A stretch of DNA of 64,000 nt from a bacterium (lineage in GTDB: Bacteria > JADJOY01). The stretch's first letter is position 1, and each line of letters begins with the position of its first letter. This document shows, one piece after another, positions 46,380 through 63,932 of this stretch. Under the pieces are notes generated by a model. It ran no database searches. It was not told where the DNA came from and was given only the letters and a program-made list of their open reading frames with translations. The stretch spans positions 78,370 through 142,369 of the forward strand of contig JAXLQJ010000002.1 of assembly GCA_046331705.1 (NCBI GenBank). The letters are read 5' to 3'. Made by a program: the position numbers and the translations under genes.

Positions 46380-47198
46380 ATGGAACCCAAGCTCGCGGTA
46401 TTCGTGGACTTCGAGAACATCGAGCGCGGCATCGAAGAGGCCGGGCTCGGCAAGTTCCAGGTGGACTTGGTGCTGAATCGCCTGCGCGAGAAAGGCAAGG
46501 TGATCGTGTCGCGGGCCTACGCCGACTGGGGTCGGTACACGGCCTACAAGTTCGATTTCCAGGACCACGGCATCGATCTGATCGAGCTACCGTCGCGCCG
46601 CAAGGGCCAGAAGAACATGGCCGACATCAAGATGGTGGTGGACGCGCTCGACTACGCGTGGAAGTGGTCCTACATCGACTCGTTCGTGATCGTCTCGGGC
46701 GACAGCGACTTCACGCCGCTGATCTCGAAGCTGCGCGAGTACAACCGCTTCGTGATGGGCATGGGCGTACGCAAGTCCACCTCGACGCTGATCGCCGACA
46801 CCTGCGACGAGTTCGTCTACTACGACGATCTGGTGCGCATCAAAGAGAAGCAACGCGAGCGGCGCCGCATCGACGACGACCCGAGCCAGGTCTTCACGCT
46901 GCTCGTCGAGACGGTGGACGCGATGAAGGCGAGCCACGAGGTCATCCTGAGCTCCATGGTCAAGCAGACCATGCTGCGCAAGAAGCCGGATTTCGACGAG
47001 CGCGCGCTCGGCTTCCGCACCTTCAAGCGGCTGCTCGAGAACGCGCGCGACAAGGGCCTGATCGGCTTGGTGCGCGACGAGCGCAGCGGCACCTATCGGA
47101 TCGTCGAGCCCGAAGAGGGTGCCGCGGCGCAACCCGTCAAGAGCGTTCGATCCGAACGACCAGCGGCGGGTGCGCCCCCGGATGGCGGCGTAACGTGA
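46380..47198 (+). CDS. NYN domain (LabA-like) protein
   Basis: LAVFVDFENI...VSRAYADW...VIVSGDSDFTPL pattern of NYN/LabA nucleases; GAGGAAATGA RBS context. Confidence 0.8.
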   Translation: MEPKLAVFVDFENIERGIEEAGLGKFQVDLVLNRLREKGKVIVSRAYADWGRYTAYKFDFQDHGIDLIELPSRRKGQKNMADIKMVVDALDYAWKWSYIDSFVIVSGDSDFTPLISKLREYNRFVMGMGVRKSTSTLIADTCDEFVYYDDLVRIKEKQRERRRIDDDPSQVFTLLVETVDAMKASHEVILSSMVKQTMLRKKPDFDERALGFRTFKRLLENARDKGLIGLVRDERSGTYRIVEPEEGAAAQPVKSVRSERPAAGAPPDGGVT

Positions 47199-47808
47199 GC
47201 GTGCCGGTCTCGTCCGTCGCGAGCCCGCGGACCACGACCACGCGATTGAGCGGGATGACGCGCTCGATGAACTTGAAGCCGAGCGTCTGGACGTCCATGC
47301 GACGATCGAGATCGGCCGTCAGCACGTAAGGGAACTCCTTGACCTTGAGCTTGGCCTCGGTCTGGCTCGCGAGCCCGATGCGCTCGAAGCGCTCGACGAT
47401 GGTCTCCGACTCGAATTGCGCGCCTTCGGGATCGACGGTCACCTCGTCGTCCCGATCGCCGAGCCAGAAGATGCCGCACGAGCGGCGCTTCGCCATCAGC
47501 ACGTCCTGACCGCTCGAGGAATCCTGGTCGCCGAGCAGCGGCAGCGCGCCGTCGCGGGCCTTGCGCTTCCAGAGGCGTTCGACGACGTACTCGTAGTAGA
47601 TGCACGGGCTCGAATCGATGCCGGAGCGCAAGGCCGCGGGCGTGCGCGCCATGCCGCTCACCTCGACCGGTAGACGGAAGGTTCCTTTCGGGTGCCGCGA
47701 ACGGTGTTCCTGATACGACCGCACGAGCTCGCGCACCGACACCACGCGCCCGGGCGCGAGCGCACCGGGGCTTGGCGTGGGAACGTCGGGACGCTGCATG
47801 AGTCGCAA
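47137..47808 (-). CDS. hypothetical protein
   Basis: ORF with non-shadow composition (Lys, Phe, Tyr, Ile present); convergent 62-bp overlap with the NYN gene; start uncertain. Confidence 0.35.
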   Translation of the reverse strand: MRLMQRPDVPTPSPGALAPGRVVSVRELVRSYQEHRSRHPKGTFRLPVEVSGMARTPAALRSGIDSSPCIYYEYVVERLWKRKARDGALPLLGDQDSSSGQDVLMAKRRSCGIFWLGDRDDEVTVDPEGAQFESETIVERFERIGLASQTEAKLKVKEFPYVLTADLDRRMDVQTLGFKFIERVIPLNRVVVVRGLATDETGTLTLRRHPGAHPPLVVRIERS

Positions 47809-47853: not shown

Positions 47854-48969
47854 TTACTCGAAGATGTCTCGAACGCGATCGAAGAACCCACGATCCTCCG
47901 GCGGCGAGGCCCCATCCTCGCGCGCGAGCGCCTCGTAGAGCTCGCGCTGCCGGGCGTTCAGCTCGTCGGGAACGTGGACGCGAATGCGTACTTTCTGATC
48001 GCCGCGGCCGGCGGCGCTGCCCGACGGCATCCCCTTGTTCCGCAAGCGATAGATGCGCCCGGGCTGGGTCCCGGGCTGCGTCTTCATGCGGATCGGACCA
48101 TCGAGCGTGGGAATCTGCACCTCGGTACCGAGCGCCGCCTGCGCGACGGTCAACGTCAGGTCGTAGATGAGGTCCGCACCCTCGCGCTTGAACTGGGGAT
48201 GCTCCTGGATCTGCACCACCACGTAGAGATCGCCGGCGCCGCCCCCGGCGATCCCCATCTCGCCCTCGCCCTGCAGCCGGAGCCGGCTCTCGTGCTCGAC
48301 GCCCGCAGGCACGCGCACCTTGAGCTCGTGGCGCGCCTTCACCGAGCCCGCGCCCTGACACCGCGAGCACGGATCTCGCACGATTCGTCCTCGCCCCTCG
48401 CATTGCGTGCAGGGCTTCGAGACGCTGAAGAAGCCTTGCTGCAGGCGAACCTGCCCCGAACCGCGACAGCTCGGGCACGTCGTCGAGCCGGTGGCGCTCG
48501 CGGCGCCGGTGCCATTGCAGTGGGCGCATGGCCGGCGGCGCGGCACACGGACGCGCTTCTCCGTGCCGAACGCGGCTTCTTCCAGCGTGATCTCGAGGTT
48601 GTAGCGCAGGTCGGTGCCACGCTCGCCGCGTGACTGCGAGCCCGGGCCGCGGCCACCGAAGATGTCGTTGAAGAGATCGCCGAAGAGATCCTGGAAGTTG
48701 CCCGGTCCTTGCGGGCCGGCCCCCGGACGGGCACCACCGAAGGGGCCACCCGCCGAGCCAAAGCGATCGTAGTTCGCCCGCTTCGGCGGATCGCTGAGCA
48801 CCGAGTACGCCTCGGAGAGCTCCTTGAAGCGCTCCTCTGCCGCTGGATTCCCGGGATTCTTGTCCGGATGACACTCGTGGGCGAGGCGGCGATACGCCTT
48901 CTTGAGGTCATCGGGCGTCGCGTTCCGGGACACCCCCAGCACTTGGTAGTAATCGCGGGCCGCGCTCAC
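47854..48969 (-). CDS. dnaJ: molecular chaperone DnaJ
   Basis: J-domain DYYQVLGV...HPDKNP; four CxxCxGxG zinc-finger repeats; start set at GTG 48969 behind GGAGG, giving a GTGA overlap with the upstream Hsp70-like stop. Confidence 0.85.
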
Positions 48970-50756
48970 GACGACAGCACCTCCGGCGTCGCCGACGAAC
49001 GAAGCCACGGCGCGAGCGCCCTGGCGGCGTGCTGGATTCGCTCGAGATCGGCGCTCGCGAGCGCGCTGCGAGCGCGCTCCATCGCCACGCCGAGATCACG
49101 CTCCGACGCCGCGTTTCCGCGCAGCCGTCCCTCGCCCAGGATGCGCGCGGTGGTGAGCAGCTGCCCGTCCAGCATCCAACGGGCGCGCAACAACCCCTCG
49201 TGGCCGCGTTGCGATTCGAGCAATCGATCCAGCTCGTGCGTGATGTCCGCCAGCGCGGGAACGGCGCCCTCCAGCCGCTCCAGCGCAGCGGTCTCGAGCG
49301 AGCCCGGCGCGCGCACGCCCACCGCGAGCCGCCCGTCGGTACTGGCCTCGACGACCAGCTCGACCCGACGGAAGTCGTTCCGCGGGCCGGAATCGGACGC
49401 CATCCGGAACGAGGCCAGCGAGGCTCCGAGCTCCGCCCGGTCGACCTCGCCCTCGATGAGCTCGACCGGCTGCCGTCCGAGGGCCGAGACCGGATACGGC
49501 CCGCTCACCGTCGCCGGCAGCGGCGCGAAGCGATCGACGAACCGCAGCACCCCGCCGTCGGGATTGCGGACGCCGATGGCGTGAGGCGCGACCTGCAAGA
49601 GGAAGACGTCCGGGACGTCGCCCTCGCGGCGGGCTCCGTGAAGACACGCACCCACCGCACCCCACGGCGTGCGGTCCGGGTCGATCCGCACCTCGCGCGC
49701 CGCGCGAGCGCGCAGCGCTTGCGCGACGAACGTGATCGACGGCGCGCCGCCCACGACCTGCCAGCGCGACACCCGATCCGGCGCCGTGCCCTTGAGCACC
49801 GACGCCAGCTCCTCCTCGAACGCGCCGAGCAACGGCCGCGCGAGCTCGCGAAGCCGATCCCCGTCGACCTCGACGTCGAGGTGGCGCGGGCCGGCGGCGG
49901 TGAGCGCCAGGTACGGCACCGTCACCCGCGTCGGCACCTTGGGTTGCGACCGCAGACGCGCCAGCCCGTCCTCGCACGCGGCGCGCAGCCGTGCCACCGA
50001 TCGCGGCCGCATGCCGGCATCCAGGATCAGCTCGCCCTCGAAGGGCGCGGCGAGGAACCGCATCATGCGGACGAGAAGATCGTCGCCCAGCCCAGCCACC
50101 CTGCCGCCCATGCGCTCGAGCTCGATCGCCTCGTCGGAAAGATCGATCAGCGCCGCGCCGACGCTCGCGCTCTCGTGCTCCACCAAGCCCACGGTTCCCC
50201 GCGCTCCCGAGTCGTGGAGCGCGGTGGCGATCGCGGCGGCGGCCGGCAACGTGTGCACCTGCTCGAACCCCGCGGCGCGCGCCGCCAACGCGACGCGCTC
50301 GCGCGCCGTCGCGCCGTACCACGTCGGATAAGCGATCGACGCGACGCCGATCGAGCGTCCGATCCAATCGCTGGCTCCCTGACGAAGCCGCGCGAGCAAG
50401 CAGGCGACCAACGCCGTGACGCTCCACTCCGCGCCCCGGATGCCGAGCTGCGGCCCGGTCGCGTCGAGGCGCGGCTGCGGCAGCGAGAGCAACGCCGCGT
50501 CGTCGGACGGGACGGTGCGCGCGAGCCCCAGCGCATGCACGAGACGAGCCGCCGCCCCGTCCGGATCGGAGACCGACCGCGCGCGCGCATCGTGGCCGAC
50601 GCGAACCAAGCCGGCGGCGTCCACGTGGACGATCGCCGGCCCCTCCAACGCCGTGGCGGCCAGACGCTGCATGCGCTCGCCCTTGCCGCGCATGACCACG
50701 CCGGCGAGCTGGCGATCGGAGAGATCGATGCCGAGTATCGGCTCGTGCAACCCCAC
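48966..50756 (-). CDS. Hsp70-family (actin-like ATPase fold) protein, highly divergent
   Basis: [17 protein letters not shown]-terminus (compare DnaK GIDLGTT); [15 protein letters not shown]...[16 protein letters not shown] matches the Hsp70 adenosine motif, but phosphate-2 DLGGGTFD is not recognisable. Confidence 0.6.
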
Positions 50757-50933
50757 CTCGATCCCTCCGGAAGACGGCGTCTTCCGATCCTACGATGGTC
50801 CCCGCCAGCGAGCCACCGCGACGCGTGGAACGCGACTCGGCCGCCCCGGCGCGTGCTTCAGCTCGGACGTCCCCGCAACGCGCGCGAGGCCACGACCGAC
50901 GAGCCCGGGCGGCGGCCTCGGCACCTGCCTCCG

Positions 50934-51884
50934 TCAGTCATCGTCCGAGGAATCCTCGCCATTTCGGGTCGAAACCTTGGGCGCCGGCCCACCGAGCGCG
51001 ACGCGATCGGGAGCCGGCTTGGGTGCCGCCTTGGCGACGGCCACCATCGCGGGCCTGAGCAAACGGTCCTTGTAACGATAGCCCTTCACGTACTCGCTGG
51101 CGACGTGTCCCGGTGGCACGTCACCGCTCTCGACCTGGGTCATCGCGTCGTGCAACTGGGGATCGAACACGGTGCCCACCGAAGAGAAGGGCTCCACCCC
51201 GAACTTCGCGAGCGTGTGCAGGATCTGGTTGTGGGTGATCTTGACGCCCTCGGCGATCGAGGCGACGTCGTTGGCTTGCGAGGCGGCGCCGAGCGCGCGC
51301 TCCAGGTTGTCGATCGCCGGCAGCATCTCCCGGAGCAGCTCCTCTTGCGCGTACTGAACCGCATCGGCCTTGTCCTTCGCCGAGCGGCGTCGATAGTTCT
51401 CGAAATCCGCTTGAAGCCTCAGCCGCGCCTCGTAGCTCTTCTCACCCTCGGCCTTGGCCTCGGCGAGCTGCTTCTCGACCTCGGCCAAGTGGCGCTCGAG
51501 CTGCTGAAGGAGCTTGGCCGGGACCTTCTTGCCCTTCTTCTTGCCGAGCTCGGCATCCTCCGACTGTCCCTTGTCCGGCGTGGGCTCCGAACCCGAGCCC
51601 GCTTCCTCGCCGATGCCGGCGTCGCCACGTCGCAGCTGCTCGAGGAACGCCTCCGCGAGCGCGGCCGCTTCGGCCACGGCCTTGGACTTGTGGGCACCAT
51701 CCTCGCCAGCGCCGCCGGCGGGCGCGGGCTCGGCGCCGGGCTCCTGCGTGATGCCCGGTGCGTCGTCGTTGTTGGACGGCGGGTTGCGACTGGCATCTCG
51801 TTCCGACAAGGACAGCCTCTCTTCCCTGGCAAGGGTTGCGAATGGTGCTCGTACGCGTCCTGGCGGCGGCCCGTCCGCTCGCAA
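50934..51884 (-). CDS. grpE: nucleotide exchange factor GrpE
   Basis: RLQADFENYRRRSAKDK signature; start uncertain (long Ala/Pro-rich N-terminus). Confidence 0.8.
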   Translation of the reverse strand: MRADGPPPGRVRAPFATLAREERLSLSERDASRNPPSNNDDAPGITQEPGAEPAPAGGAGEDGAHKSKAVAEAAALAEAFLEQLRRGDAGIGEEAGSGSEPTPDKGQSEDAELGKKKGKKVPAKLLQQLERHLAEVEKQLAEAKAEGEKSYEARLRLQADFENYRRRSAKDKADAVQYAQEELLREMLPAIDNLERALGAASQANDVASIAEGVKITHNQILHTLAKFGVEPFSSVGTVFDPQLHDAMTQVESGDVPPGHVASEYVKGYRYKDRLLRPAMVAVAKAAPKPAPDRVALGGPAPKVSTRNGEDSSDDD

Positions 51885-51908
51885 CGGACGGCGAACGGTG
51901 CACCGCGA

Positions 51909-52970
51909 CTAGCGCGGTTCCAGGAATCGGCTGATGAGCTGCGCCGTGTATTCGACCATGGGGATGATTCGCGAATAGTCCAGCCGCGTGGGGCCGAGGA
52001 TTCCGATCGAGCCAATCACTTGAGGCCCGCGTCGATACGGCGACGACACCACGACCAGATCGTCGACTCCGTCGATCCCGGCCTCCGAGCCGATCGAGAC
52101 GCACACACCGCCGGCGACGCGCGCGCGATCGAGGATGTTCACGATCCGCTCCCGATCCTCCAGCGCCTCGATCAGCGCCCGGACTCGCTCGGGCTCGCTG
52201 AACTCGCGGTGCGCGAGCAGGCTCGAGGTGCCTTCGACGAACACCTCGCCTTGACCCTCGTTCTCGAACACGCAGCGACTGACCGCGAGAATGCGGCGCG
52301 AGAGATCATCGATCAGCTCGCGGTCGCGGGCCAGCTCGTCCAGCAGACGGTCGCGCACCTGGTCGAGCGGTGCTCCCGTGAGGCGTTCGCAGAGCAGCTC
52401 CGTGAGCCGATTCAAGCGGGTCTGGGCGACGTCCTCGTCGAGGCGCACGATGCGATTCACGATCACGCCCGTCGACGACACGAAGATGACCAGGATCTCC
52501 GCGGGCCGCAGCCGCACGAAGTCGACGTGCTGGAACACCGCGTCGCCCAGCATCGGCGCCACCGCCATCCCCGGGCAACGCGAGAGCCGCGACAACGCCC
52601 GCGACGCGTCCCGCAAGCACGCCGCGAGCCCACCCTCCGAGCTCGCCGTCACCTGGTTGAGCGACTGGCGATCCGCGCGGCTCAGGGTGTAATCCGCCAT
52701 GCGCGTCTCGACGAACCAGCGAAACGCGTGCTCGGTGGGCACCCGGCCGGCCGACGTGTACGGATGCGACAGCAACCCGGCGTCCTCCAGGTCCATCATC
52801 TCGTTTCGGACCGTGGCCGGGCTCACGTCGAGCCCGTGCGCGCGAGTCAGGGTTCGCGAGCCCACCGGCTCACCCGAGGCGATGTAGGTCTCGATCACCA
52901 GCTCGAGGACCCGGCGGCTGCGCTGTGGCAGCTCGTCGATGGATCGCGGCGTGCGGCTGGTCGTGGTCAT
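51909..52970 (-). CDS. hrcA: heat-inducible transcription repressor HrcA
   Basis: N-terminal winged helix RSRRVLELVIETYIASGEPVGSRTL; overall HrcA-like length and organisation; directly upstream of grpE. Confidence 0.85.
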   Translation of the reverse strand: MTTTSRTPRSIDELPQRSRRVLELVIETYIASGEPVGSRTLTRAHGLDVSPATVRNEMMDLEDAGLLSHPYTSAGRVPTEHAFRWFVETRMADYTLSRADRQSLNQVTASSEGGLAACLRDASRALSRLSRCPGMAVAPMLGDAVFQHVDFVRLRPAEILVIFVSSTGVIVNRIVRLDEDVAQTRLNRLTELLCERLTGAPLDQVRDRLLDELARDRELIDDLSRRILAVSRCVFENEGQGEVFVEGTSSLLAHREFSEPERVRALIEALEDRERIVNILDRARVAGGVCVSIGSEAGIDGVDDLVVVSSPYRRGPQVIGSIGILGPTRLDYSRIIPMVEYTAQLISRFLEPR

Positions 52971-53277
52971 GACTGAGCGGTGCGGGAGCGAGAGCGCAAC
53001 TTTGAGACGCGGTTAGCGTCAAGCTATCAGTCGCCATTTCGGCATGTCAAGCAAGACTTCCGCCATCGCGTCCGGCAAAACTCGATTGATTTCGACACCT
53101 TATGGCTTGACGTCGGGGCGCGATCCGGGTCATGCCCGACGCACCACCGAGCCGATGTTGCACATGCGGCGCCAACTCCTCGCCGCCACGCCACGATCCC
53201 GCGGGGTCATGCGCCGAGATGAAACGCAGGTTTGGGAATTGCCAGTCGCGGTCCGGCGCGGGTATGGTCGGCGCAGC

Positions 53278-53583
53278 ATGGCTCGCCCAACCAAGCGGAT
53301 CTCGGAGCGTGAAAGCGCCGAGATCCAGCTCCTCGATACGCTCGAAGAAGTGGCACGCCAGGTCGGCGTGGAGGTGGTTCACGACCACATCCGCGCCGAG
53401 GGCTTCATGTCGCGTGGCGGCTCGTGTCGCTTGCGGGATCGCTGGATGATCCTGCTCGACCGCAAGATGCCCACGTCGGACAAGGTGGATCTGCTCGCCA
53501 CCGAGCTCCGCCAGTGGCCGATCGACGGGGTCTTCGTCCCCCCCGCGATCCGCCACTTGCTCGAGCCGCGCTCCGCTTCCTGA
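53278..53583 (+). CDS. hypothetical protein (101 aa)
   Basis: Tail of ORF 53044..53583 from ATG 53278 (MARPTKRISERESAEIQLLDTLEE); followed by a short GGGTGC/GCACCC hairpin. Confidence 0.35.
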   Translation: MARPTKRISERESAEIQLLDTLEEVARQVGVEVVHDHIRAEGFMSRGGSCRLRDRWMILLDRKMPTSDKVDLLATELRQWPIDGVFVPPAIRHLLEPRSAS

Positions 53584-55407: not shown

Positions 55408-57930
55408 TCAGAAGATCCCCTTGATCCAGTCCCAGGCGCTGTCGTCGCGCTCCTTGGGGCTCGTGGACCGGCTGCCGTTTGGCGGGGCCGCATCACGCGA
55501 TCCGCGACCCGCACCCGCGGCGCTCTCGTCGTCGCCGCGAACCTTGTCGAGCAGCGTCGGATGCAGCGGACACGTACGGCTCGGCTGGGTGCCTTCGAGA
55601 AAGGGCAGGCGCTCCGTCCGCGGGCACGCTGCGGTCGCCAGCAAGCCCGTCTCCGGATCGATCTCCGCGAAGGAGATCCCGCGCGGCGCCTCCAACTCGT
55701 CCGCCGGCCACCACGACGTGTGCGTGACGTAATCGACCCAGATGGGTAGCGCCGCCTTCGCCCCGACCATCCCGACCGGCTGGTTGTTGTCGCGGCCCAC
55801 CCAGACGACGACCACGCGGCCCGGCAGGTAGCCCGCGAACCAGGCGTCGCGGAAGTCGTCGGTGGTGCCCGTCTTGCCGGCAGCGGGACGATCGAGCCCG
55901 AGCGTCCGCGCCGACGCTCCCGTCCCCGTCTGCAGCACCTCCTCGAGCGTCCAGGTGACGAGATACGCGATCTCGGGATCCATCACGCGCGTCGCCCGCG
56001 GCCGCGTGCGGGTCAGCACGCGGCCATTGGCGTCCACCACCGAGCGCACGGTGGTGGGAGAGGTGCGCAGGCCACCGGAGGCCAGCACGCCGTACGCGCG
56101 CGCGACGTCGAGCGGAGTCACCTCCGCCGCACCCAGCGCCAGCGACGGCACGTTGGGCAGCTTGCCGCCGAAGCCGACCGCTTCGAGCTGCTTGCGCAAG
56201 GCGGCCGTCCCGACCTGCTGCCAGATCCGGACCGCCGGCGTGTTGAGCGAGAGCGCCAGCGCCTCGTGAAGCGGCACGACGCCGCGATACTCGCCGTCGT
56301 AGTTGGTGGGGCGCCACGTCTGCCGATCGTAGCGGATCGTGATCTCGCGGTCCTCGACCTCGCTGGCGAGCGTGGGATGGAAGTCGCGCTGTCCCGCGAG
56401 CGCACACGCGTAGAGAAACGGCTTGAAGAGCGAGCCGGGCTGGCGGCGACTCTTGACCGCGCGGTTGTACGGCGCGCTCCGGTAATCGCGACCGCCGACC
56501 AGCGAGCGGATGGAGCCCGTGTCGGGGTCGAGCTCGATCAACGCCGCCTGCAGTCGCGCGGGGTCGCCCTCGGGATGGTGCTCGTCGCGACGCTTCTCGA
56601 GCGCCGCCAACCCCTCGGCTACCGCGCGCTCCGCCTCGTGCTGGAGGATCGGATCGAGCGTGCTCATCACGCGCAAGCCGCCCGCGTTGAGCGTGTTGGT
56701 GCTGTAGGTGGATTCGAGCTCGTCGCGCAGCAGATCGACGAAATAGGGGGCGCCCTCGGGGGGACCGGGAGCGTAGGACTGGCTGAGCGGCTCGCGCGCG
56801 GCGCGCTCCGCTTCCTCGGGGCTCAGCCGATGGGTCTTCACCATGCGGTCGAGCACCACCGCGCGGCGCTCGCGCGCCGCGTCCGGGTGCCGGAAAGGAT
56901 CGTAGCGGCCCGGCGACCGGATGAGCCCGCCCAACATCGCGCACTCGCCGAGGCTCAGGTCCTCGACGGGCTTGCCGAAGTAGTAGCGCGCGGCCTCGCC
57001 CACCCCGTAGACGCCCATGGCGCCGCGCTGCCCGAGGTAGATGGCGTTCAGGTACACGCCCAGGATCTCGTCCTTGTCGTAGAGCGCGTCCAGCACCAGC
57101 GCCATCGCCGCCTCGCGGACCTTGCGCGACAGCGTGCGTTCGGGAGTCAGGAACAGGTTCTTCACCAGCTGCTGCGTGATCGTGCTGCCGCCCTCTTGCA
57201 CCGAACCGGAGCGCAGGTTGGCGACCAGCGCGCGCGCGATCCCGATCGGGTCGACGCCCGCGTGATCGAGGAAGCGAGTGTCCTCGGTGGCGACGATCGC
57301 GTTGACGAGCGCGCGCGGGACCTTGCCGACCTCCACCAGCTCGCGCTCCTCCCAAACCCGTTCGAACAAGCCGCTCACGACCTCCGGTTCGAGCACGTAG
57401 GGCGGCGTGGCCTTGCGATCGGGAGCGACGACCTGCGTCACGCGTCCGTCGTCGAGCGTGAGCACGACGCGGTACGCGGGCAGCTTGCGATCGCCGTACG
57501 CGAGCGCACGCACCCCGATCTCGACCCGATCCGGCTGGACGTGGAACTGGCCCGAGCGAACGGGCGTGGTATCGACGCGCCGATACCCGGCGTTCACCAG
57601 CCGGTCGAGGATCTTGAAGCGCGTCACCTCGAGGCCGCGCGCGAGGACTGGCGGCTCGGCGTAGACGCGCGACGGCAGACGGAAGCGCTGTCCCTCGAAT
57701 CGCGCGATGATGTCCTGCGAGATCGAGAATCCCCACACGAGCGCGAGCGCCGTCCCGTAGAGGACCACGTACGGCAGCACGCGCCGGATCAGACCGCGAC
57801 GCTTGGAGCGCCGCCAGAGATCCGTCTGCTCCGTCGCCGGGCGCCGGCCGCGTCCGCGCCCTGCTTCCCGCGTCGTCTTCGCTCTACGCGATCGGGCCGC
57901 CACCAGCTCGCCTGGAACCGCCGCGCGCAC
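55408..57930 (-). CDS. penicillin-binding protein 1A family (bifunctional glycosyltransferase/transpeptidase)
   Basis: GT51 motifs EDTRFLDHAGVD and GGSTITQQLVKN; transpeptidase SLFKPF and KTGTT motifs. Confidence 0.85.
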   Translation of the reverse strand: MRAAVPGELVAARSRRAKTTREAGRGRGRRPATEQTDLWRRSKRRGLIRRVLPYVVLYGTALALVWGFSISQDIIARFEGQRFRLPSRVYAEPPVLARGLEVTRFKILDRLVNAGYRRVDTTPVRSGQFHVQPDRVEIGVRALAYGDRKLPAYRVVLTLDDGRVTQVVAPDRKATPPYVLEPEVVSGLFERVWEERELVEVGKVPRALVNAIVATEDTRFLDHAGVDPIGIARALVANLRSGSVQEGGSTITQQLVKNLFLTPERTLSRKVREAAMALVLDALYDKDEILGVYLNAIYLGQRGAMGVYGVGEAARYYFGKPVEDLSLGECAMLGGLIRSPGRYDPFRHPDAARERRAVVLDRMVKTHRLSPEEAERAAREPLSQSYAPGPPEGAPYFVDLLRDELESTYSTNTLNAGGLRVMSTLDPILQHEAERAVAEGLAALEKRRDEHHPEGDPARLQAALIELDPDTGSIRSLVGGRDYRSAPYNRAVKSRRQPGSLFKPFLYACALAGQRDFHPTLASEVEDREITIRYDRQTWRPTNYDGEYRGVVPLHEALALSLNTPAVRIWQQVGTAALRKQLEAVGFGGKLPNVPSLALGAAEVTPLDVARAYGVLASGGLRTSPTTVRSVVDANGRVLTRTRPRATRVMDPEIAYLVTWTLEEVLQTGTGASARTLGLDRPAAGKTGTTDDFRDAWFAGYLPGRVVVVWVGRDNNQPVGMVGAKAALPIWVDYVTHTSWWPADELEAPRGISFAEIDPETGLLATAACPRTERLPFLEGTQPSRTCPLHPTLLDKVRGDDESAAGAGRGSRDAAPPNGSRSTSPKERDDSAWDWIKGIF

Positions 57931-57948: not shown

Positions 57949-58893
57949 TCAGCGCGAGCCGCGGGGGCTGGCCGAGCCGCCCAGCTCCTTGAGCTTCTCG
58001 CGCGCCATGCGGGCCTCTTCCGTCGACGGATAGGAATCGACGAGCTTGAGCAGCACCACCCGCGCATCACCGGTGTAGTTGAGGCTCGCGAAGCAAAGAC
58101 CCTGCTTGAGCAGCGCCGCCGGAACCTTGTCGCTCCGGGGATAGTTCTTGATGAGCTTGTCGTAGGCGGGCAAGGCCCACTCGAACTGACGCTCGTTGTA
58201 GAACGTCTCGCCGACGTAGAACTGCGCGTCATCCGCCAGATCTTCGTCCGGGCGGCCGGCCAAGTAGGCGAGAAACGCGTTCCGCGCATCCTTGTAGCGA
58301 CCCGCTTGGAGCGCGCTGTAGCCGGTCTGGAACTGCTGGGATGGCGGAAGCGCCGCTGGCGACACCGGCGCCGCGGGTGCGGTCGCGGCTGGCGCAGGGA
58401 CCGCGGGCGCCACGGGTGTGGGCGCCGTCGCGGTGGGGGACGGCGGCATCGGGGTCACCCCGACCGGCGCCAACGTGCCCGCATCGGGTGGCTTCACACC
58501 GAGGCGCGTCTCGAGCTCGATGACGCGGTTACGCACCTCGAGAAGCTGCGCCATGACCTGCTCGTTGAACGCGTCGCTGAGCTGGTCGTCGAGGCGCCCC
58601 TTCGGCGTCCGACGCTCGTCCACTTGGCCGCGCAACGCGCGCAGGTCCGAGTTGAGGCGCTCGGAGTCCGCGGAGAGATCGGCGTTGCGAGTGCGGATCT
58701 CCTGGAGCTCCTTCGACTGGGCCGCGCGCTCGGCCTCCAGCCGATCGACGCGCATCAGCAGCGAGGTGTACTCGGCCTTGCTCACGCAGCCCGCGAGCGC
58801 TCCGACCAGCAGGAACGTCCCACACACGCGGGGCGCGCGCGCCCCACGGGCAATCGCGCGAATCGACGTGTCGAACCGTATGCGCTCGTTCAT
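57949..58893 (-). CDS. cpoB: Tol-Pal system protein YbgF/CpoB
   Basis: Lipoprotein-like N-terminus; coiled coil; C-terminal TPR region (FYVGETFYNERQFEWALPAYDKLIKNYP); position immediately downstream of pal. Confidence 0.7.
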   Translation of the reverse strand: MNERIRFDTSIRAIARGARAPRVCGTFLLVGALAGCVSKAEYTSLLMRVDRLEAERAAQSKELQEIRTRNADLSADSERLNSDLRALRGQVDERRTPKGRLDDQLSDAFNEQVMAQLLEVRNRVIELETRLGVKPPDAGTLAPVGVTPMPPSPTATAPTPVAPAVPAPAATAPAAPVSPAALPPSQQFQTGYSALQAGRYKDARNAFLAYLAGRPDEDLADDAQFYVGETFYNERQFEWALPAYDKLIKNYPRSDKVPAALLKQGLCFASLNYTGDARVVLLKLVDSYPSTEEARMAREKLKELGGSASPRGSR

Positions 58894-58970
58894 GACGCGG
58901 CGAGGATAGATGCTGTGGATGGTCCTGTCAGCCCACGGCCATCACCGAGGACGCCGTGAGCTGCGCGCGC

Positions 58971-59519
58971 TCACTGACCCAGCACGCGGAACTGCGCCCG
59001 TCGATTCTTCGAGAACGCCGCCTCGTCGTGCCCCACCACCGCCGGCAGCTCTTCGCCGTAGCTGATCGTCTCGATCCGCGACGCGGAGATGCCGAGCTGC
59101 ACCAGGTAGTTCTTCACCGCGCCCGCGCGCTTCTGGCCGAGCGCCATGTTGTACTCGTTGGTGCCGCGCTCGTCGGTGTGGCCCTCGATCTCCACGCGCA
59201 GCGACGGCGTGCTGCGCAACGTCTGGTAGTCCTCCTGCAACGTGGCGCGCGCATCCGCGGAAAGAGTCGACGAGTCGTAGTCGAAATAGATCCGCGCGAG
59301 CCCCGGCGGATCGATCGTGCCGCGACCGGCGCCCTCGGTGTCGAACGGTGTCGAGGAGACCATCGGCGACGCCTTGTACGGCGTGGTGGGCGTGGTCGAC
59401 GAGATGGGCGGCGACATGTCGGGGGGCTGAGCCGGCTGCTCCTTGGAGCACCCACCCGCCACCGCCAGCACCAGCGAACCAACGCAGCACAGACGCTTCA
59501 CTTCGTCCCGCAAGCTCAT
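58971..59519 (-). CDS. pal: peptidoglycan-associated lipoprotein Pal
   Basis: Lipobox LAVAGGCS; OmpA-like C-terminal domain (IEGHTDERGTNEYNMALGQKRA...NRRAQFRVL); start set at ATG 59519. Confidence 0.85.
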   Translation of the reverse strand: MSLRDEVKRLCCVGSLVLAVAGGCSKEQPAQPPDMSPPISSTTPTTPYKASPMVSSTPFDTEGAGRGTIDPPGLARIYFDYDSSTLSADARATLQEDYQTLRSTPSLRVEIEGHTDERGTNEYNMALGQKRAGAVKNYLVQLGISASRIETISYGEELPAVVGHDEAAFSKNRRAQFRVLGQ

Positions 59520-59798
59520 TCCGACATCTCCTCGACGACCGTCGTGGGCCGTCACCAGCGCCGCGCGATGCTTTCCACCTCGGAAGCCAGCGCGGTCACC
59601 CTTTTCATCGTGCGGATCTTCGTTGCCACCGAGAGCCGAGCCGCTTGCCGCCGTCCGTGCGCGGTGCTCGTCGAGCTCGATGCATGGGTTACCGGAGAAG
59701 CCGCGACCACGTCAATGCAACCAAGCGCCTCCTGACCATTCCTTGACCGAAAAACCAACACGCGTGCAGTGAGCCTCGCGTCGCGAGCACCGAGCGCC

Positions 59799-61154
59799 TC
59801 ACGGCGCGTGCTGCATCGGTCCCCAATCGGGCTGCAGGTCCATGGCGCGGCCATCGGTGAGCCTCACGGGTTTCCCACCGAGAGCCGACACCAAGAACAG
59901 GCTCGACGAGCCGCCACCACCCGAGCTGTAAACGAGCGTGCGGCCGTCCGGCGACCAGCTTGGATGCTCGTCGGATCCTGGCCCGTCGCTGACCCTGCGG
60001 ACTCCGGAGCCGTCGGCATTCATCACGTAGATCCGCCACGGGCCCGGGTTCGCCTCGAACGCGATCATCTGACCGTCCGGCGAGAACCTCGGCGAACCGT
60101 GGTCCATCCCCATCGTCGAGATCTTGCGCTGGCCGGATCCGTCCGAGTTCATCAAGTAGAGCTGGGGACGCCCCGCGCGATCGGAGACGAAGACGATCTG
60201 GCTACCGTCGGGCGACCACGATGGCGAAACGTCGAGCGCGTCGCCCGAGGTGAGCTTGGTGAACCCGGACCCATCCACACCGATGATGCAAATGTTTCCG
60301 TCCTTGCTGAACGCGACGCGACGGCCGTCGGGCGAGAAGGCACCGCCCGTGTTCAGCCCTCCGCTCGCGATCAGGCTCGGGCGCCCCGTGGCCGCGTCTT
60401 GGATCCAGAGGTCCGGCTTGTAGCTTCGATACGACGTGTAAAGAATCGAGCTTCCGCTCGGCGACCAATCCGGCATCATCGCGATCTTGTCGTCGAACGT
60501 GAGGCGCGTGAGGTTGCTGCCGTCGGTGTCGATGACGAAGATGTCCTTGCGACCTGCGTGGCCGCGCGTCGATGAAAAGACGATGCGCGTTCCGAACGCG
60601 CCCATCTTGCCCGTGGTCGCCTCCAGCACACGGTTCGCGAAATCGTGGACCGCCGCTGCCAGCTGGCTGGGCGGCACTTGGTATTTCCTACCGAGGATCT
60701 GCCGCGCGTCGGGCACCTTGTGGAGCCTGAGCTCGAGCGCGTAGGCGCCGCCGCTCTGCTCGGCGGTCGCCTTGATGAGGAAATCCGCGCCGAGCGTCCG
60801 CCAAGGCGCGAAGTCGATCTCGCCGTCGACGACCGGTGCCGCCTGCGCGTCCTCCGCGTACGAGCCTTCGGGTATCCAGTGAAAGAACCCGGAAAGCTCG
60901 AGATCGCGAACCAGGAGGTCGTGCATCTTCTTGAGCTGCGGGTCGCCGGGCGAAAGCCCAGGCCCGACCTTCCATGCCGCGTGCGCAAAATGCCACGCAG
61001 CGCCGCCCTCGACGGAGACTCGCCACGGTGTCACCGCTGCATCGTCGTTCGTCGCTTGGCCAAACGCCGCGCCGGCACGGAGCGTCGCCAAGACGGCGAG
61101 CAGACCCACGACGATGCCACGCGCTCTCGCGACTCGAGGCCCAGGTCGTTTCAT
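59799..61154 (-). CDS. tolB: Tol-Pal system beta-propeller protein TolB
   Basis: Signal peptide; repeated DWSPDG/FSPDG propeller blades. Confidence 0.85.
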   Translation of the reverse strand: MKRPGPRVARARGIVVGLLAVLATLRAGAAFGQATNDDAAVTPWRVSVEGGAAWHFAHAAWKVGPGLSPGDPQLKKMHDLLVRDLELSGFFHWIPEGSYAEDAQAAPVVDGEIDFAPWRTLGADFLIKATAEQSGGAYALELRLHKVPDARQILGRKYQVPPSQLAAAVHDFANRVLEATTGKMGAFGTRIVFSSTRGHAGRKDIFVIDTDGSNLTRLTFDDKIAMMPDWSPSGSSILYTSYRSYKPDLWIQDAATGRPSLIASGGLNTGGAFSPDGRRVAFSKDGNICIIGVDGSGFTKLTSGDALDVSPSWSPDGSQIVFVSDRAGRPQLYLMNSDGSGQRKISTMGMDHGSPRFSPDGQMIAFEANPGPWRIYVMNADGSGVRRVSDGPGSDEHPSWSPDGRTLVYSSGGGGSSSLFLVSALGGKPVRLTDGRAMDLQPDWGPMQHAP

Positions 61155-62164
61155 CCTGCAGATCCCCCTTCAGCGACGAACTCGATGGCGCCCGCGAACG
61201 ACGACCGTTGCCAGCAAGCGGGCAGCGGCTCGAACGGTGCCGCCTTCTTGAGGCCCGCGATCACCGACTCGTCGAACAATCGATCTCCGCTCGACGTACC
61301 CACCGATTGGCTCACGAGCGATCCATCCTTCGCGATCTCGAGCTTGATGAGCGCGGTGAGACCGCGGCGCTGATCGGGATAGTTGACGCTGGCGCGGAGC
61401 TTCTTGATCACCTCGCTGCCGTATTGGGCCAACGCCGCCTGGCATGCATCCGCCGGCACCTTGCCGGTGCCCCCCTCGACGCCCCACGTGACGCCGGTCT
61501 CCACGCCGGCTTTCGCCGCGCGCTCCGCCATTTCCTGGATGCGCTTTTCCATCGACGCAACGTCCGATTCGCTGGGGCGTGTCGTCGTCACGTCGGCGGG
61601 CTTGCTCGGTTTGGCGGCGGAGCTCGTCTTGGCCGGCGACTCCTTCGCCGAGTCGGGCTTCTTCGACTTGTCCGCGTCCACCAGCTTCTCGGGCTTCTCC
61701 GGCTTCTTGGGCTCGGGCGGCTTCGTCTCTTTCGGCTTCTCGGCCTTGGCGTCGCGGAGTGGCTTTTCGGGCGCCTTTGGCTTCTCGGGCTCTTTGGGCT
61801 TCTCCGGCGGCTTGACCGGTTTCTCCTCGCGAATGGGGATGGCGTTCGGCGGCGGCTCGGGTGGCTTGACGGGCTTGGGTGGATCGGGGGGCGGTGTCTC
61901 CGCGGTTTTCGGCTCGGGCGGCCGTGGCGCAACGGGCGCAGAAGGCGCAGACGGCTTGCTGCCGCCGCCCTCGATCGCCGCCAGCTCCTCCGGCGAGACG
62001 AGGCTCGCGCCGATGACCGGCGGGGGCGAGAAGAAGGACGCCTCGTTACTGCGAGTGATCGCCAGCGCTGCGATGGCGGCCGCGTGCAGCACGAGCGAGA
62101 TCGCGAACGCCAGGCGAAGCCCGCGCGGGACTCGATCCTTGAGCGCGCTCGTCCGCGGGATCAC
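61151..62164 (-). CDS. tolA: TolA/TonB-family energy-transducer protein
   Basis: N-terminal TM helix, long Pro/Lys/Glu-rich spacer, C-terminal globular domain; position between tolR and tolB. Confidence 0.7.
   Translation of the reverse strand: MIPRTSALKDRVPRGLRLAFAISLVLHAAAIAALAITRSNEASFFSPPPVIGASLVSPEELAAIEGGGSKPSAPSAPVAPRPPEPKTAETPPPDPPKPVKPPEPPPNAIPIREEKPVKPPEKPKEPEKPKAPEKPLRDAKAEKPKETKPPEPKKPEKPEKLVDADKSKKPDSAKESPAKTSSAAKPSKPADVTTTRPSESDVASMEKRIQEMAERAAKAGVETGVTWGVEGGTGKVPADACQAALAQYGSEVIKKLRASVNYPDQRRGLTALIKLEIAKDGSLVSQSVGTSSGDRLFDESVIAGLKKAAPFEPLPACWQRSSFAGAIEFVAEGGSAG
61560..61930. repeat. imperfect coding repeats (PEKPK-type Pro/Lys/Glu-rich) inside the tolA-like gene
   Basis: Recurring GGCTTCTC/GGGCTT-type units on the plus strand, matching the KPPEKPKEPEKPK protein repeats. 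Confidence 0.4.
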
Positions 62165-62640
62165 TTCCGCTTCTCGCTCTTCCCCGTCGTCGCTGCCGCC
62201 GAGGCGGTCGTGGGCATGGTGACGAGCCCGACACCCGTCACGCCGGCGTCCTTGAGCGCCGACATCAGCGCGACCACCTTGCCGTAGTCGACTTTCTCGT
62301 CGCCCCGCAGAAAAACGTCCTTCTTGGGGTCGTTCTGACGAGCGGTCTGGACGAACTGCACCAGGCCATCCAGGTCTTGCGGCTTGCTGTCACGCAGCAG
62401 GAAATACGTGCCCTTGGGATCGATCGTGATCACGATCGGATCGCGCGTGTCCGTCGTCATCGGTTCCGCGGGCTTGGTCTGCGGCAGGTCGACCTTCACT
62501 CCTTGATTGATGTCCAGCATCGGCGCCGAGACCATGAAGATGATGAGCAAGACCAGCATCACGTCGACCAACGGCGTCACGTTGATCTCGGCCATCTGCG
62601 CGCGGCCTCGCGCAGGGCTACGACTGAGCTGGATCGACAT
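62161..62640 (-). CDS. tolR: biopolymer transport protein TolR/ExbD
   Basis: INVTPLVDVMLVLLIIFMV TM motif typical of ExbD/TolR; 4-nt overlap with tolA start. Confidence 0.8.
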   Translation of the reverse strand: MSIQLSRSPARGRAQMAEINVTPLVDVMLVLLIIFMVSAPMLDINQGVKVDLPQTKPAEPMTTDTRDPIVITIDPKGTYFLLRDSKPQDLDGLVQFVQTARQNDPKKDVFLRGDEKVDYGKVVALMSALKDAGVTGVGLVTMPTTASAAATTGKSEKRK

Positions 62641-62710
62641 GGTCGGTCACGCGTGACGGGCGCGCGGCGAGCGCTCGTTCGCTAGGAAGCGGGGATCCGG
62701 CGCAGAAGGT

Positions 62711-63454
62711 TCATTCGCTCGTGAGCGCGTCGCGCAACACCTGCCGCTGAGCCAGATTCAGAAACTCCGTCCGAAACCCTTCCAGCTCGCCGGCAAGGTA
62801 TCCGATCTGATTGTGAAACAGATTGTAAAAAAGCACCGCCGGGATCGCCGCTGCCAAGCCCGCCGCCGTCGCGATCAGCGCCTCGGCGATGCCCGGTGCG
62901 ACCGCCTGAACGGTGGATGCGGCACCCGCGCTGATTCCCTGGAATGCGCGGATGATGCCGAGCACCGTGCCGAAGAGACCGATGAACGGGGTGGCGCTGG
63001 CGGTGGTCGCGAGCAGCCCCAGGCCGCGCTCGAGCTTGCGCACTTGCAGGCTGATCGATGCGTCGAGCGCGCGCTCCACCGTGGTGAGACCCACCACGCG
63101 CACGGCTTCCACCAGCGATTGCTTGGCCGAAGGCCCACCGAGACTGCCGAGCGCCTTGAGCTCGCGGTAGCCCGCGCGAAACACCTCGGCCTCGAGCGCG
63201 TGCGTGAAGCGCGGCGCCTGATCGTAGATCGAGCTCAGGCTGCGCGCTTCCCAGAAGACCTTCACGAACTCGACACCCTGCGTCCGGCTCGCGCGAATCT
63301 CGCGCCACTTCCAGAGGATCACCGCCCAGCTCGCCACCGAGAACACGCACAGCATCAACATCACGAGCTTGGCGTCGAGCCCCGCGTGACGCAGCAAGCT
63401 CACGATGCTCTGGCCGGCGGCTCCGGTCGCGATCACGAAAGTCGGTGGGTGCAT
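62711..63454 (-). CDS. tolQ: proton-channel protein TolQ/ExbB (MotA/TolQ/ExbB family)
   Basis: Three TM segments with conserved C-terminal region ATPFIGLFGTVLGIIRAF. Confidence 0.85.
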   Translation of the reverse strand: MHPPTFVIATGAAGQSIVSLLRHAGLDAKLVMLMLCVFSVASWAVILWKWREIRASRTQGVEFVKVFWEARSLSSIYDQAPRFTHALEAEVFRAGYRELKALGSLGGPSAKQSLVEAVRVVGLTTVERALDASISLQVRKLERGLGLLATTASATPFIGLFGTVLGIIRAFQGISAGAASTVQAVAPGIAEALIATAAGLAAAIPAVLFYNLFHNQIGYLAGELEGFRTEFLNLAQRQVLRDALTSE

Positions 63455-63905: not shown

Positions 63906-63932
63906 CTGGCACTCACCGATTCGGAGTGCTAA
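63906..63932 (+). promoter_or_regulatory. CIRCE-like inverted repeat CTGGCACTC-N9-GAGTGCTAA (HrcA operator-like)
   Basis: Perfect GCACTC/GAGTGC arms with 9-nt spacer; right arm identical to the CIRCE consensus half GAGTGCTAA; left arm differs at two flanking positions. Confidence 0.5.

Follow-up and report, generated by a model that had tools for sequence, protein, structure and literature searches.

A divergent Hsp70-type gene with a degenerate nucleotide site in the dnaK position of a bacterial hrcA-grpE-dnaJ operon

The action of Hsp70 proteins is defined by an ATP-driven cycle, and to our knowledge the sole known roles of the J-domain and of GrpE consist in driving this cycle. Hsp70 derivatives that work without it are, as far as we know, found mainly in eukaryotes, in the form of Hsp110, which needs bound ATP and carries long insertions and extensions, and of Ssz1/HSPA14, of which Ssz1 still binds ATP. 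Ssz1 is the non-hydrolysing Hsp70 partner of a J-protein that drives a separate canonical Hsp70 (PMC8476630, PMC9197937), and HSPA14 has no lid (PMC13580251). In bacteria, the Myxococcales are rich in Hsp70-family genes, with 15 in M. xanthus and 12 in A. dehalogenans, and the bacterial DnaK derivatives described so far, mainly from this group, are said to keep the ATPase domain, the lid or the basket being truncated or lost (PMC13580251, PMC8265645). The locus described here lies in a 64,000-nucleotide (nt) stretch of bacterial DNA (assembly GCA_046331705.1, contig JAXLQJ010000002.1, positions 78,370 to 142,369), referred to as the window, in which four co-directional minus-strand genes at 47854-52970 encode HrcA, GrpE, a 596-residue Hsp70-like protein, named X, and DnaJ (Table 1).

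What sets this locus apart is that a nucleotide site has been dismantled in the housekeeping dnaK locus itself, beside a fully canonical GrpE and DnaJ. The preferred reading, to which a probability of about 0.55 is assigned, is that X is a DnaK-derived pseudo-ATPase, which acts independently of ATP as a partner of DnaJ and hands clients over to a DnaK encoded elsewhere in the genome.

Nucleotide site and substrate-binding domain of X

Profile matches identify all four genes and bear out the hrcA-grpE-Hsp70-dnaJ operon that a sequence-only reading of this DNA had proposed, together with the GTGA overlap between the stop codon of X and the start codon of dnaJ. X scores 100.5 bits with the Pfam family PF00012, for which the gathering threshold is 20.6 bits, and its residues 7-479 correspond to positions 1-481 of the 599 in that profile. 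Its scores lie below the equivalog cut-offs for DnaK (TIGR02350, 120.7 versus 822.55 bits; NF001413, i.e., PRK00290, 127.1 versus 648 bits) and below the cut-off for HscA (TIGR01991, 57 versus 708.55 bits). X is the Hsp70-type gene of the operon, and a highly divergent one, as that reading had held.

Residue numbers are those of E. coli DnaK and were transferred by three agreeing alignments, namely phmmer against the DnaK entries of the PDB, MAFFT with E. coli DnaK, and L-INS-i with 20 diverse canonical DnaKs. The first phosphate loop of X reads IDLSDRQ for IDLGTTNS (G10S, T11D, T12R, and N13Q) and the second VEHESASVG for YDLGGGTFD (D194E, G196E, G197S, G198A, T199S, and D201G), and the degeneracy of both loops, noticed before, is recovered independently by each of the alignments. 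Both catalytic residues are replaced (K70V and E171L), as are the adenosine and ribose contacts K270L, S274R, T344P, and R345S; G228 is lost, and G32, in the GrpE-binding loop, is replaced. Retained are D8, which is a ligand of Mg, as well as P143, R151, G229, and G341-G342. Within the catalytic and phosphate-contacting set (D8, T11, T12, K70, E171, D194, G196-G198, T199, and D201), X keeps D8 only. All 8 members of the X family share these replacements or have equivalent ones, showing K70V/A/M, E171L/I/M, G196E/D, different residues at G197, G198A, T199S/V/A, and D201G/A.

Measured against the columns that are invariant over 21 canonical DnaKs, X keeps 4 of 21 residues at the nucleotide site and 21 of the other 41 in the ATPase domain, which amounts to 25 out of 62 (Fisher p = 0.027), so that the loss of residues is concentrated on the active site. 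Judged by these positions, X is unable to use the canonical catalytic mechanism of Hsp70, and it has likely lost nucleotide binding altogether, since 17 of the 21 invariant residues of the site are replaced and the adenosine contacts are among them. The earlier description of X as catalytically impaired was right about the degenerate site and understated the extent of the damage.

The claim that X lacks a recognisable substrate-binding domain proved to be wrong. The NCBIfam DnaK model is colinear with X over residues 6-582, phmmer pairs residues 7-565 of X with residues 4-571 of E. coli DnaK, and the hydrophobic linker reads DVFLLQVAP in X and DVLLLDVTP in DnaK. An AlphaFold model, built on a 71-sequence alignment of the X family and diverse Hsp70s, reached a predicted local distance difference test (pLDDT) value of 90.3 and a predicted template modeling (pTM) score of 0.90; with the 8 family sequences alone the prediction was uninformative (pLDDT 48). 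The model consists of an ATPase-fold domain, a linker strand, a beta-basket (strands between residues 385 and 495), and a helical lid (502-595) with helices at 502-541, 549-566, 571-588, and 591-595. X therefore has the complete architecture of the Hsp70 superfamily, which comprises an actin-like ATPase domain, a hydrophobic linker, a beta-sandwich substrate-binding domain, and a helical lid. In Foldseek comparisons, the model gave template modeling (TM) scores of 0.80 to the ATP-bound, domain-docked full-length DnaK 4B9Q (over ~600 columns), 0.80 to DnaK with a bound J-domain (5NRO), 0.82 to ATP-bound Ssb, and 0.76-0.78 to the yeast Hsp110 Sse1, versus 0.49 to DnaK in the ADP state (2KHO).

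Family, constraint and the ancestral dnaK position

The third-position GC content of X (GC3) is 0.89, similar to that of the neighbouring genes in a window of ~70% GC. A word-based search of 5.8 billion proteins returned 8 clusters of homologues at 53-100% identity, all of 577-599 residues, among them intact open reading frames (ORFs) of 595-599 residues from other lineages at 53-77% identity. The next match has 24% identity; P0009, the top match outside the family in this search, was set aside, because its context and sample are unrelated. In a profile search of all 1.84 billion representatives at 50% identity, the family forms a single cluster at 1118 bits, and the next matches, the best at 173 bits, are canonical DnaKs. 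A third protein search, with a profile made from the family plus distant matches, added nearly nothing. Among 185,579 species-representative genomes, X is carried by 5, all of which are metagenome-assembled genomes (MAGs) with an identical gene order, one of them labelled "Deltaproteobacteria bacterium" and derived from activated sludge. Carriers of X include the assemblies GCA_964392195.1, GCA_964447125.1, and GCA_964650975.1, the MAGs JADJOY01 and CAYVDO01, and the MAG that encodes MFN7950490.1, a >90% identical relative on a 352-kb NCBI contig, and SRR14234049 is among the source samples. The NCBI name of a close relative is "Hsp70 family protein". The sequence-only reading had itself named a frame artefact as something that would overturn it, and this was rejected on account of the GC3 value, the 8 homologues of the same length, and the ribosome-binding site (RBS) GGAGGG in front of X.

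For the closest pair, formed by the window and locus L002, the ratio of nonsynonymous to synonymous substitution rates (dN/dS, Nei-Gojobori) is 0.19 for X, 0.06 for hrcA, 0.05 (0.047) for dnaJ, and 0.23 for grpE, values that are rough because dS is near saturation (~0.8). X is under purifying selection, yet it evolves 3-4 times faster than dnaJ and hrcA. The constraint is distributed unevenly, with invariant family columns making up 64% of the linker, 60% of the beta-basket, 36% of the ATPase domain, and 19% of the lid; the linker and beta-basket also have the top identity in each pairwise comparison, and the stretch that spans the peptide-cleft loops of DnaK is invariant in all family members. 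Ordinary DnaKs are better conserved in the ATPase domain (PMC11019930); X, where the beta-basket is conserved above the ATPase domain, shows the reverse pattern of constraint.

Every locus of the X family has the order hrcA-grpE-X-dnaJ, followed by a gene with a GIDE domain and a convergent NYN gene. The identity of DnaJ is 92, 83, and 78% within the lineage and falls to ~55% outside it, where two of the nearest outgroup dnaJ genes (~54% identical; loci L010 and L011) belong to hrcA-grpE-dnaK-dnaJ operons, the DnaK of which is canonical and 635-636 residues long. Between the window and L010, whose DnaK is 66% identical to that of E. coli, identity amounts to 39% for HrcA, 43% for GrpE, 54% for DnaJ, and 23% for X versus DnaK. 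Because the outgroup operons have a canonical dnaK at the very same point, the slot that X fills is the ancestral one of dnaK, and the simplest explanation is that X is the resident dnaK after a burst of divergence, or its replacement in place. Presumably this change followed the takeover of the housekeeping role by another Hsp70. "Paralog", the word chosen for X in the sequence-only reading, is probably not the best term for a gene that sits where outgroups have their canonical dnaK.

Role of X and rival explanations

As a pseudo-ATPase, X would not cycle with nucleotide and would instead be a binding module in a fixed state, the beta-basket of which would hold a segment of a client or of a partner protein. 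Co-expression with dnaJ, which had been suggested earlier, is supported, X being translationally coupled with dnaJ through the GTGA overlap and probably co-transcribed with it; X would be made in a 1:1 stoichiometry with DnaJ and act jointly with it. The pair would pass substrates to a competent DnaK whose gene lies at another place in the genome, and the J-domain of DnaJ and GrpE would serve that other DnaK. Functionally, X would be akin to a holdase or to a co-chaperone subunit, comparable with the non-hydrolysing Ssz1 and its J-protein Zuo1. The genome probably does encode a competent DnaK elsewhere, because its DnaJ is canonical and very strongly constrained and its GrpE is constrained too. 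In addition, no DnaK derivative has been found in a genome that lacks a bona fide DnaK (PMC13580251), and 98.9% of bacteria carry dnaK (PMC11019930).

Several points weigh against this proposal. The 64-kb window holds no second Hsp70, X being the only match of a tblastn search with E. coli DnaK, and in related loci no canonical dnaK lies within 10 kb. The overlap of X and dnaJ suggests matched production only, and binding of X to DnaJ or to a client would be a further step. With D8, G229, and G341-G342 retained, a nucleotide may still be bound in some non-canonical way. Canonical Hsp70s dominate the 71-sequence alignment and may be the source of the docked state of the model, which is therefore weak evidence about X itself, and the selection estimates are subject to the saturation mentioned above.

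A tentative alternative, held to be distinctly less probable, is that X and DnaJ form an obligate, nucleotide-free heterodimer, in which the dead Hsp70 would be a structural subunit, as an independently evolved bacterial counterpart of Ssz1-Zuo1. In the more extreme version of this alternative, the carriers would lack a canonical DnaK altogether and would possess an Hsp70 system without an ATP cycle.

A role of X as a regulatory decoy is rather unlikely; X would then be locked in the docked state that accepts a J-domain and would sequester DnaJ, HrcA, or another regulator. Such a decoy would tune the availability of chaperones or the stress response, the model fits the J-domain-binding state (5NRO, see above), and without hydrolysis a complex with the J-domain would persist; X is also coupled to dnaJ, in an operon that encodes HrcA and yet has no CIRCE element (controlling inverted repeat of chaperone expression). 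However, the window copy and P0002 have Q in place of R167, a J-domain contact of DnaK, substitutions also affect N170 and T173, and 4 residues are deleted from the acidic loop 206-217. Nor would a decoy function account for the beta-basket being the best conserved region of X.

Slightly less probable still is a role as an Hsp110-like co-chaperone, in which X would pair through its ATPase-like domain with the ATPase domain of a canonical DnaK and either serve as an exchange factor or boost disaggregation. This type of role has been proposed for bacterial DnaK-derived paralogues in a review (PMC13580251). The similarity of the model to Sse1 and its docked conformation, as in Hsp110, agree with it, but X has only 596 residues and is devoid of insertions of the Hsp110 type. 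The exchange activity of Hsp110 depends on its ATP-bound state, whereas X has lost its nucleotide contacts. Moreover, grpE is already next door, and the strongest constraint falls on the linker and beta-basket and not on the ATPase-like domain, which would form the interface.

That X is a divergent DnaK which still works, active through substitute residues and served by the GrpE and DnaJ encoded with it, is improbable. Its location in the dnaK slot between a canonical grpE and dnaJ, the retention of D8, P143, R151, G341-G342, and the linker, and the absence of any other Hsp70 from the window are what such a protein would lead one to expect. The replacement of K70 by V, A, or M and of E171 by L, I, or M, the loss of both phosphate loops and of K270, S274, and R345, and the loss of G32 in the GrpE-binding loop are not, and neither is an evolution 3-4 times faster than that of dnaJ and hrcA in which the ATPase domain is less constrained than the beta-basket. 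A functionless, decaying dnaK remnant or a mis-called frame, for which the 23% identity to DnaK and two frameshifts in locus L007 could be cited, can largely be dismissed, as intact ORFs at 53-77% identity exist elsewhere, the dN/dS of 0.19 and long invariant stretches are at odds with a pseudogene, GC3 is 0.89, the RBS and the coupling to dnaJ are conserved, and the frameshifts fit the small indel errors expected of a long-read assembly. In that locus (L007, 10001-10366, from the MAG JADJOY01), two frameshifts in the first 370 nt of X divide it among three frames; long-read assembly is assumed from the "tig" name of the contig, and errors of this kind are the most likely cause, pseudogenisation in that lineage being the alternative.

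Operon layout, regulation and comparison with known systems

Table 1. Positions of the operon genes, the parts of X, and associated elements in the window (aa, amino acids).
Feature	Positions	Strand	Description
Promoter-like block upstream of hrcA	53018..53054	-	TTGCTTGACA..GAAAT..CTGATAGCTTGAC; two GCTTGAC repeats
hrcA	51909..52970	-	Heat-shock repressor, operon gene 1; TIGR00331 292.6 bits (cut-off 197.2); PF01628
grpE	50934..51884	-	Nucleotide exchange factor; PF01025 168.4 bits, residues 127-285
grpE-X spacer	50757..50933	-	177 nt; RBS GGAGGG 50768..50763, 6 nt 5' of the X start codon GTG
X, whole gene	48966..50756	-	596 aa; PF00012 100.5 bits
X, ATPase-like domain	49614..50756	-	aa 1-381; actin-like fold kept; catalytic, phosphate, and adenosine residues replaced
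X, linker and beta-basket	49257..49613	-	Linker aa 382-392 (DVFLLQVAP), beta-basket aa 393-500; most conserved part
X, helical lid	48969..49256	-	aa 501-596; least conserved; no disordered C-terminal tail
X/dnaJ GTGA overlap	48966..48969	-	X stop TGA 48968..48966 over dnaJ start GTG 48969..48967
dnaJ	47854..48969	-	Canonical type-I J-protein; TIGR02349 412.8 bits (cut-off 377); start GTG at 48969
GIDE-domain gene	47137..47808	-	45 nt downstream of dnaJ; PF12483 45.3 bits; soluble, 223 aa

The first gene of the operon, hrcA, encodes a protein that is 92, 81, and 73% identical to the copies in L002, L001, and L012. For grpE, a gene caller places an alternative start at 51809, which gives 291 residues on the identical Logan contig L016. 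GrpE has an N-terminal extension of ~90-120 residues that is of low complexity and rich in Ala, Glu, and Gly; its length is 282-316 residues in X-family loci versus 207-225 in the outgroups. The N-terminal tails of GrpE have been reported to contact the substrate-binding domain of DnaK (PMC12633562). DnaJ has retained all its hallmarks, which are the HPD motif, the basic helix II (KKAYRRLA), the Gly/Phe region, and the four CxxCxGxG zinc-finger motifs. The 4-nt overlap of X and dnaJ is identical in L001, L002, L012, L007, and L004, whereas the outgroup operons have a spacer of ~100 nt before dnaJ.

In the spacer between grpE and X, the last 60 nt on the 3' side are conserved in L002 and L001. 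A structured RNA or thermometer in this spacer was considered and rejected, as its fold is not significant relative to shuffled sequence (z = -0.16), and an Rfam scan of the whole 64-kb window gave no match. A perfect small hairpin, GGAAGAC-gcc-GTCTTCC (50763-50790, minus strand), is located directly 5' of the RBS of X and kept in L002; the hairpin region as a whole folds no better than shuffled sequence.

Both outgroup operons (L010 and L011) have a perfect CIRCE, TTAGCACTC-N9-GAGTGCTAA, 30-60 nt upstream of hrcA, and with up to 3 mismatches allowed none was detected in the operon region of the window, L001, L002, L007, or L012. Judging from this comparison, the X operon has lost the CIRCE operator that is present in the outgroup operons. 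Its place is occupied by the promoter-like block of Table 1, which is nearly invariant in four of four family loci (the window, L002, L001, and L012) between poorly conserved flanks and could be a new promoter or operator of the operon. The only good CIRCE in the window (63906-63932, plus strand; CTGGCACTC-N9-GAGTGCTAA, 2 mismatches) is preceded by a promoter-like TTGACG..GATAAGATT. It was considered as a pointer to dnaK and rejected, because the gene behind it is groEL, which starts ~130 nt downstream, beyond the window end, according to the identical contigs L015 and L013; no groES lies between the two. Since this CIRCE precedes groEL, HrcA still has a target, which is apparently not its own operon.

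The GIDE-domain gene directly follows dnaJ in every X-family locus and is not found there in the outgroups, and perhaps belongs to the operon as its fifth gene, functionally linked to X. PADLOC matches neither X nor the GIDE protein, and a role in anti-phage defence was rejected on this ground. The 3' end of the GIDE-domain gene is overlapped by 62 nt by the convergent NYN/OST-HTH gene (46380-47198, plus strand). Divergent from hrcA lies an ORF for 101 residues (53278-53583, plus strand) without a significant Pfam match, for which L002, L012, and L016 have a gene of 86-101 residues. Further upstream, the window contains a complete tol-pal cluster (57949-63454, minus strand), with tolQ, tolR, a tolA of the TonB_2 type, tolB, an OmpA-type pal, and a TPR-containing ybgF-like gene, followed by a gene for a class A penicillin-binding protein (55408-57930), all of which are ordinary envelope genes of Gram-negative bacteria.

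If X is indeed a nucleotide-free partner of DnaJ, it would constitute a natural experiment on the abilities of the Hsp70 scaffold, and of its docked conformation, in the absence of ATP, and an example of an essential chaperone gene repurposed in place. The impact is limited by the confinement of the family to a handful of uncultured lineages, for which the present account draws on sequence and model.

Compared with the known systems, X is closest to canonical DnaK (TIGR02350/PRK00290), with which it shares the operon position, the length class, the four-part architecture, and the hydrophobic linker, and which is its best-scoring relative outside the family, at an identity of just 20-25%. In contrast to DnaK, X has no C-terminal tail and a shortened beta7-beta8 hairpin, and its operon has the 4-nt overlap with dnaJ in place of a spacer and is devoid of CIRCE. 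The coupling of X and dnaJ suggests a pairing similar to that of Ssz1/HSPA14 with Zuo1 in the eukaryotic ribosome-associated complex. However, the Ssz1/HSPA14 type has a truncated substrate-binding domain, no lid, and ATP that is bound and not hydrolysed, whereas X has a full lid and has lost its nucleotide contacts; furthermore, X has an independent, bacterial origin from DnaK. Hsp110/Sse1 is likewise a co-chaperone derived from Hsp70 and resembles X in fold and docked conformation, but the Hsp110/Grp170 type keeps its nucleotide site and has a long insertion in the beta-basket as well as a C-terminal extension, and X has deletions, not insertions, relative to DnaK. By these comparisons, X belongs to the Hsp70 superfamily and stands outside DnaK proper, HscA, Hsp110, and the Ssz1 type. 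With the DnaK derivatives of the Myxococcales it has in common that it is a diversified Hsp70 in a high-GC bacterium labelled as deltaproteobacterial; it groups with none of them and is their opposite in design, as the substrate-binding domain is kept and the nucleotide site is dismantled.

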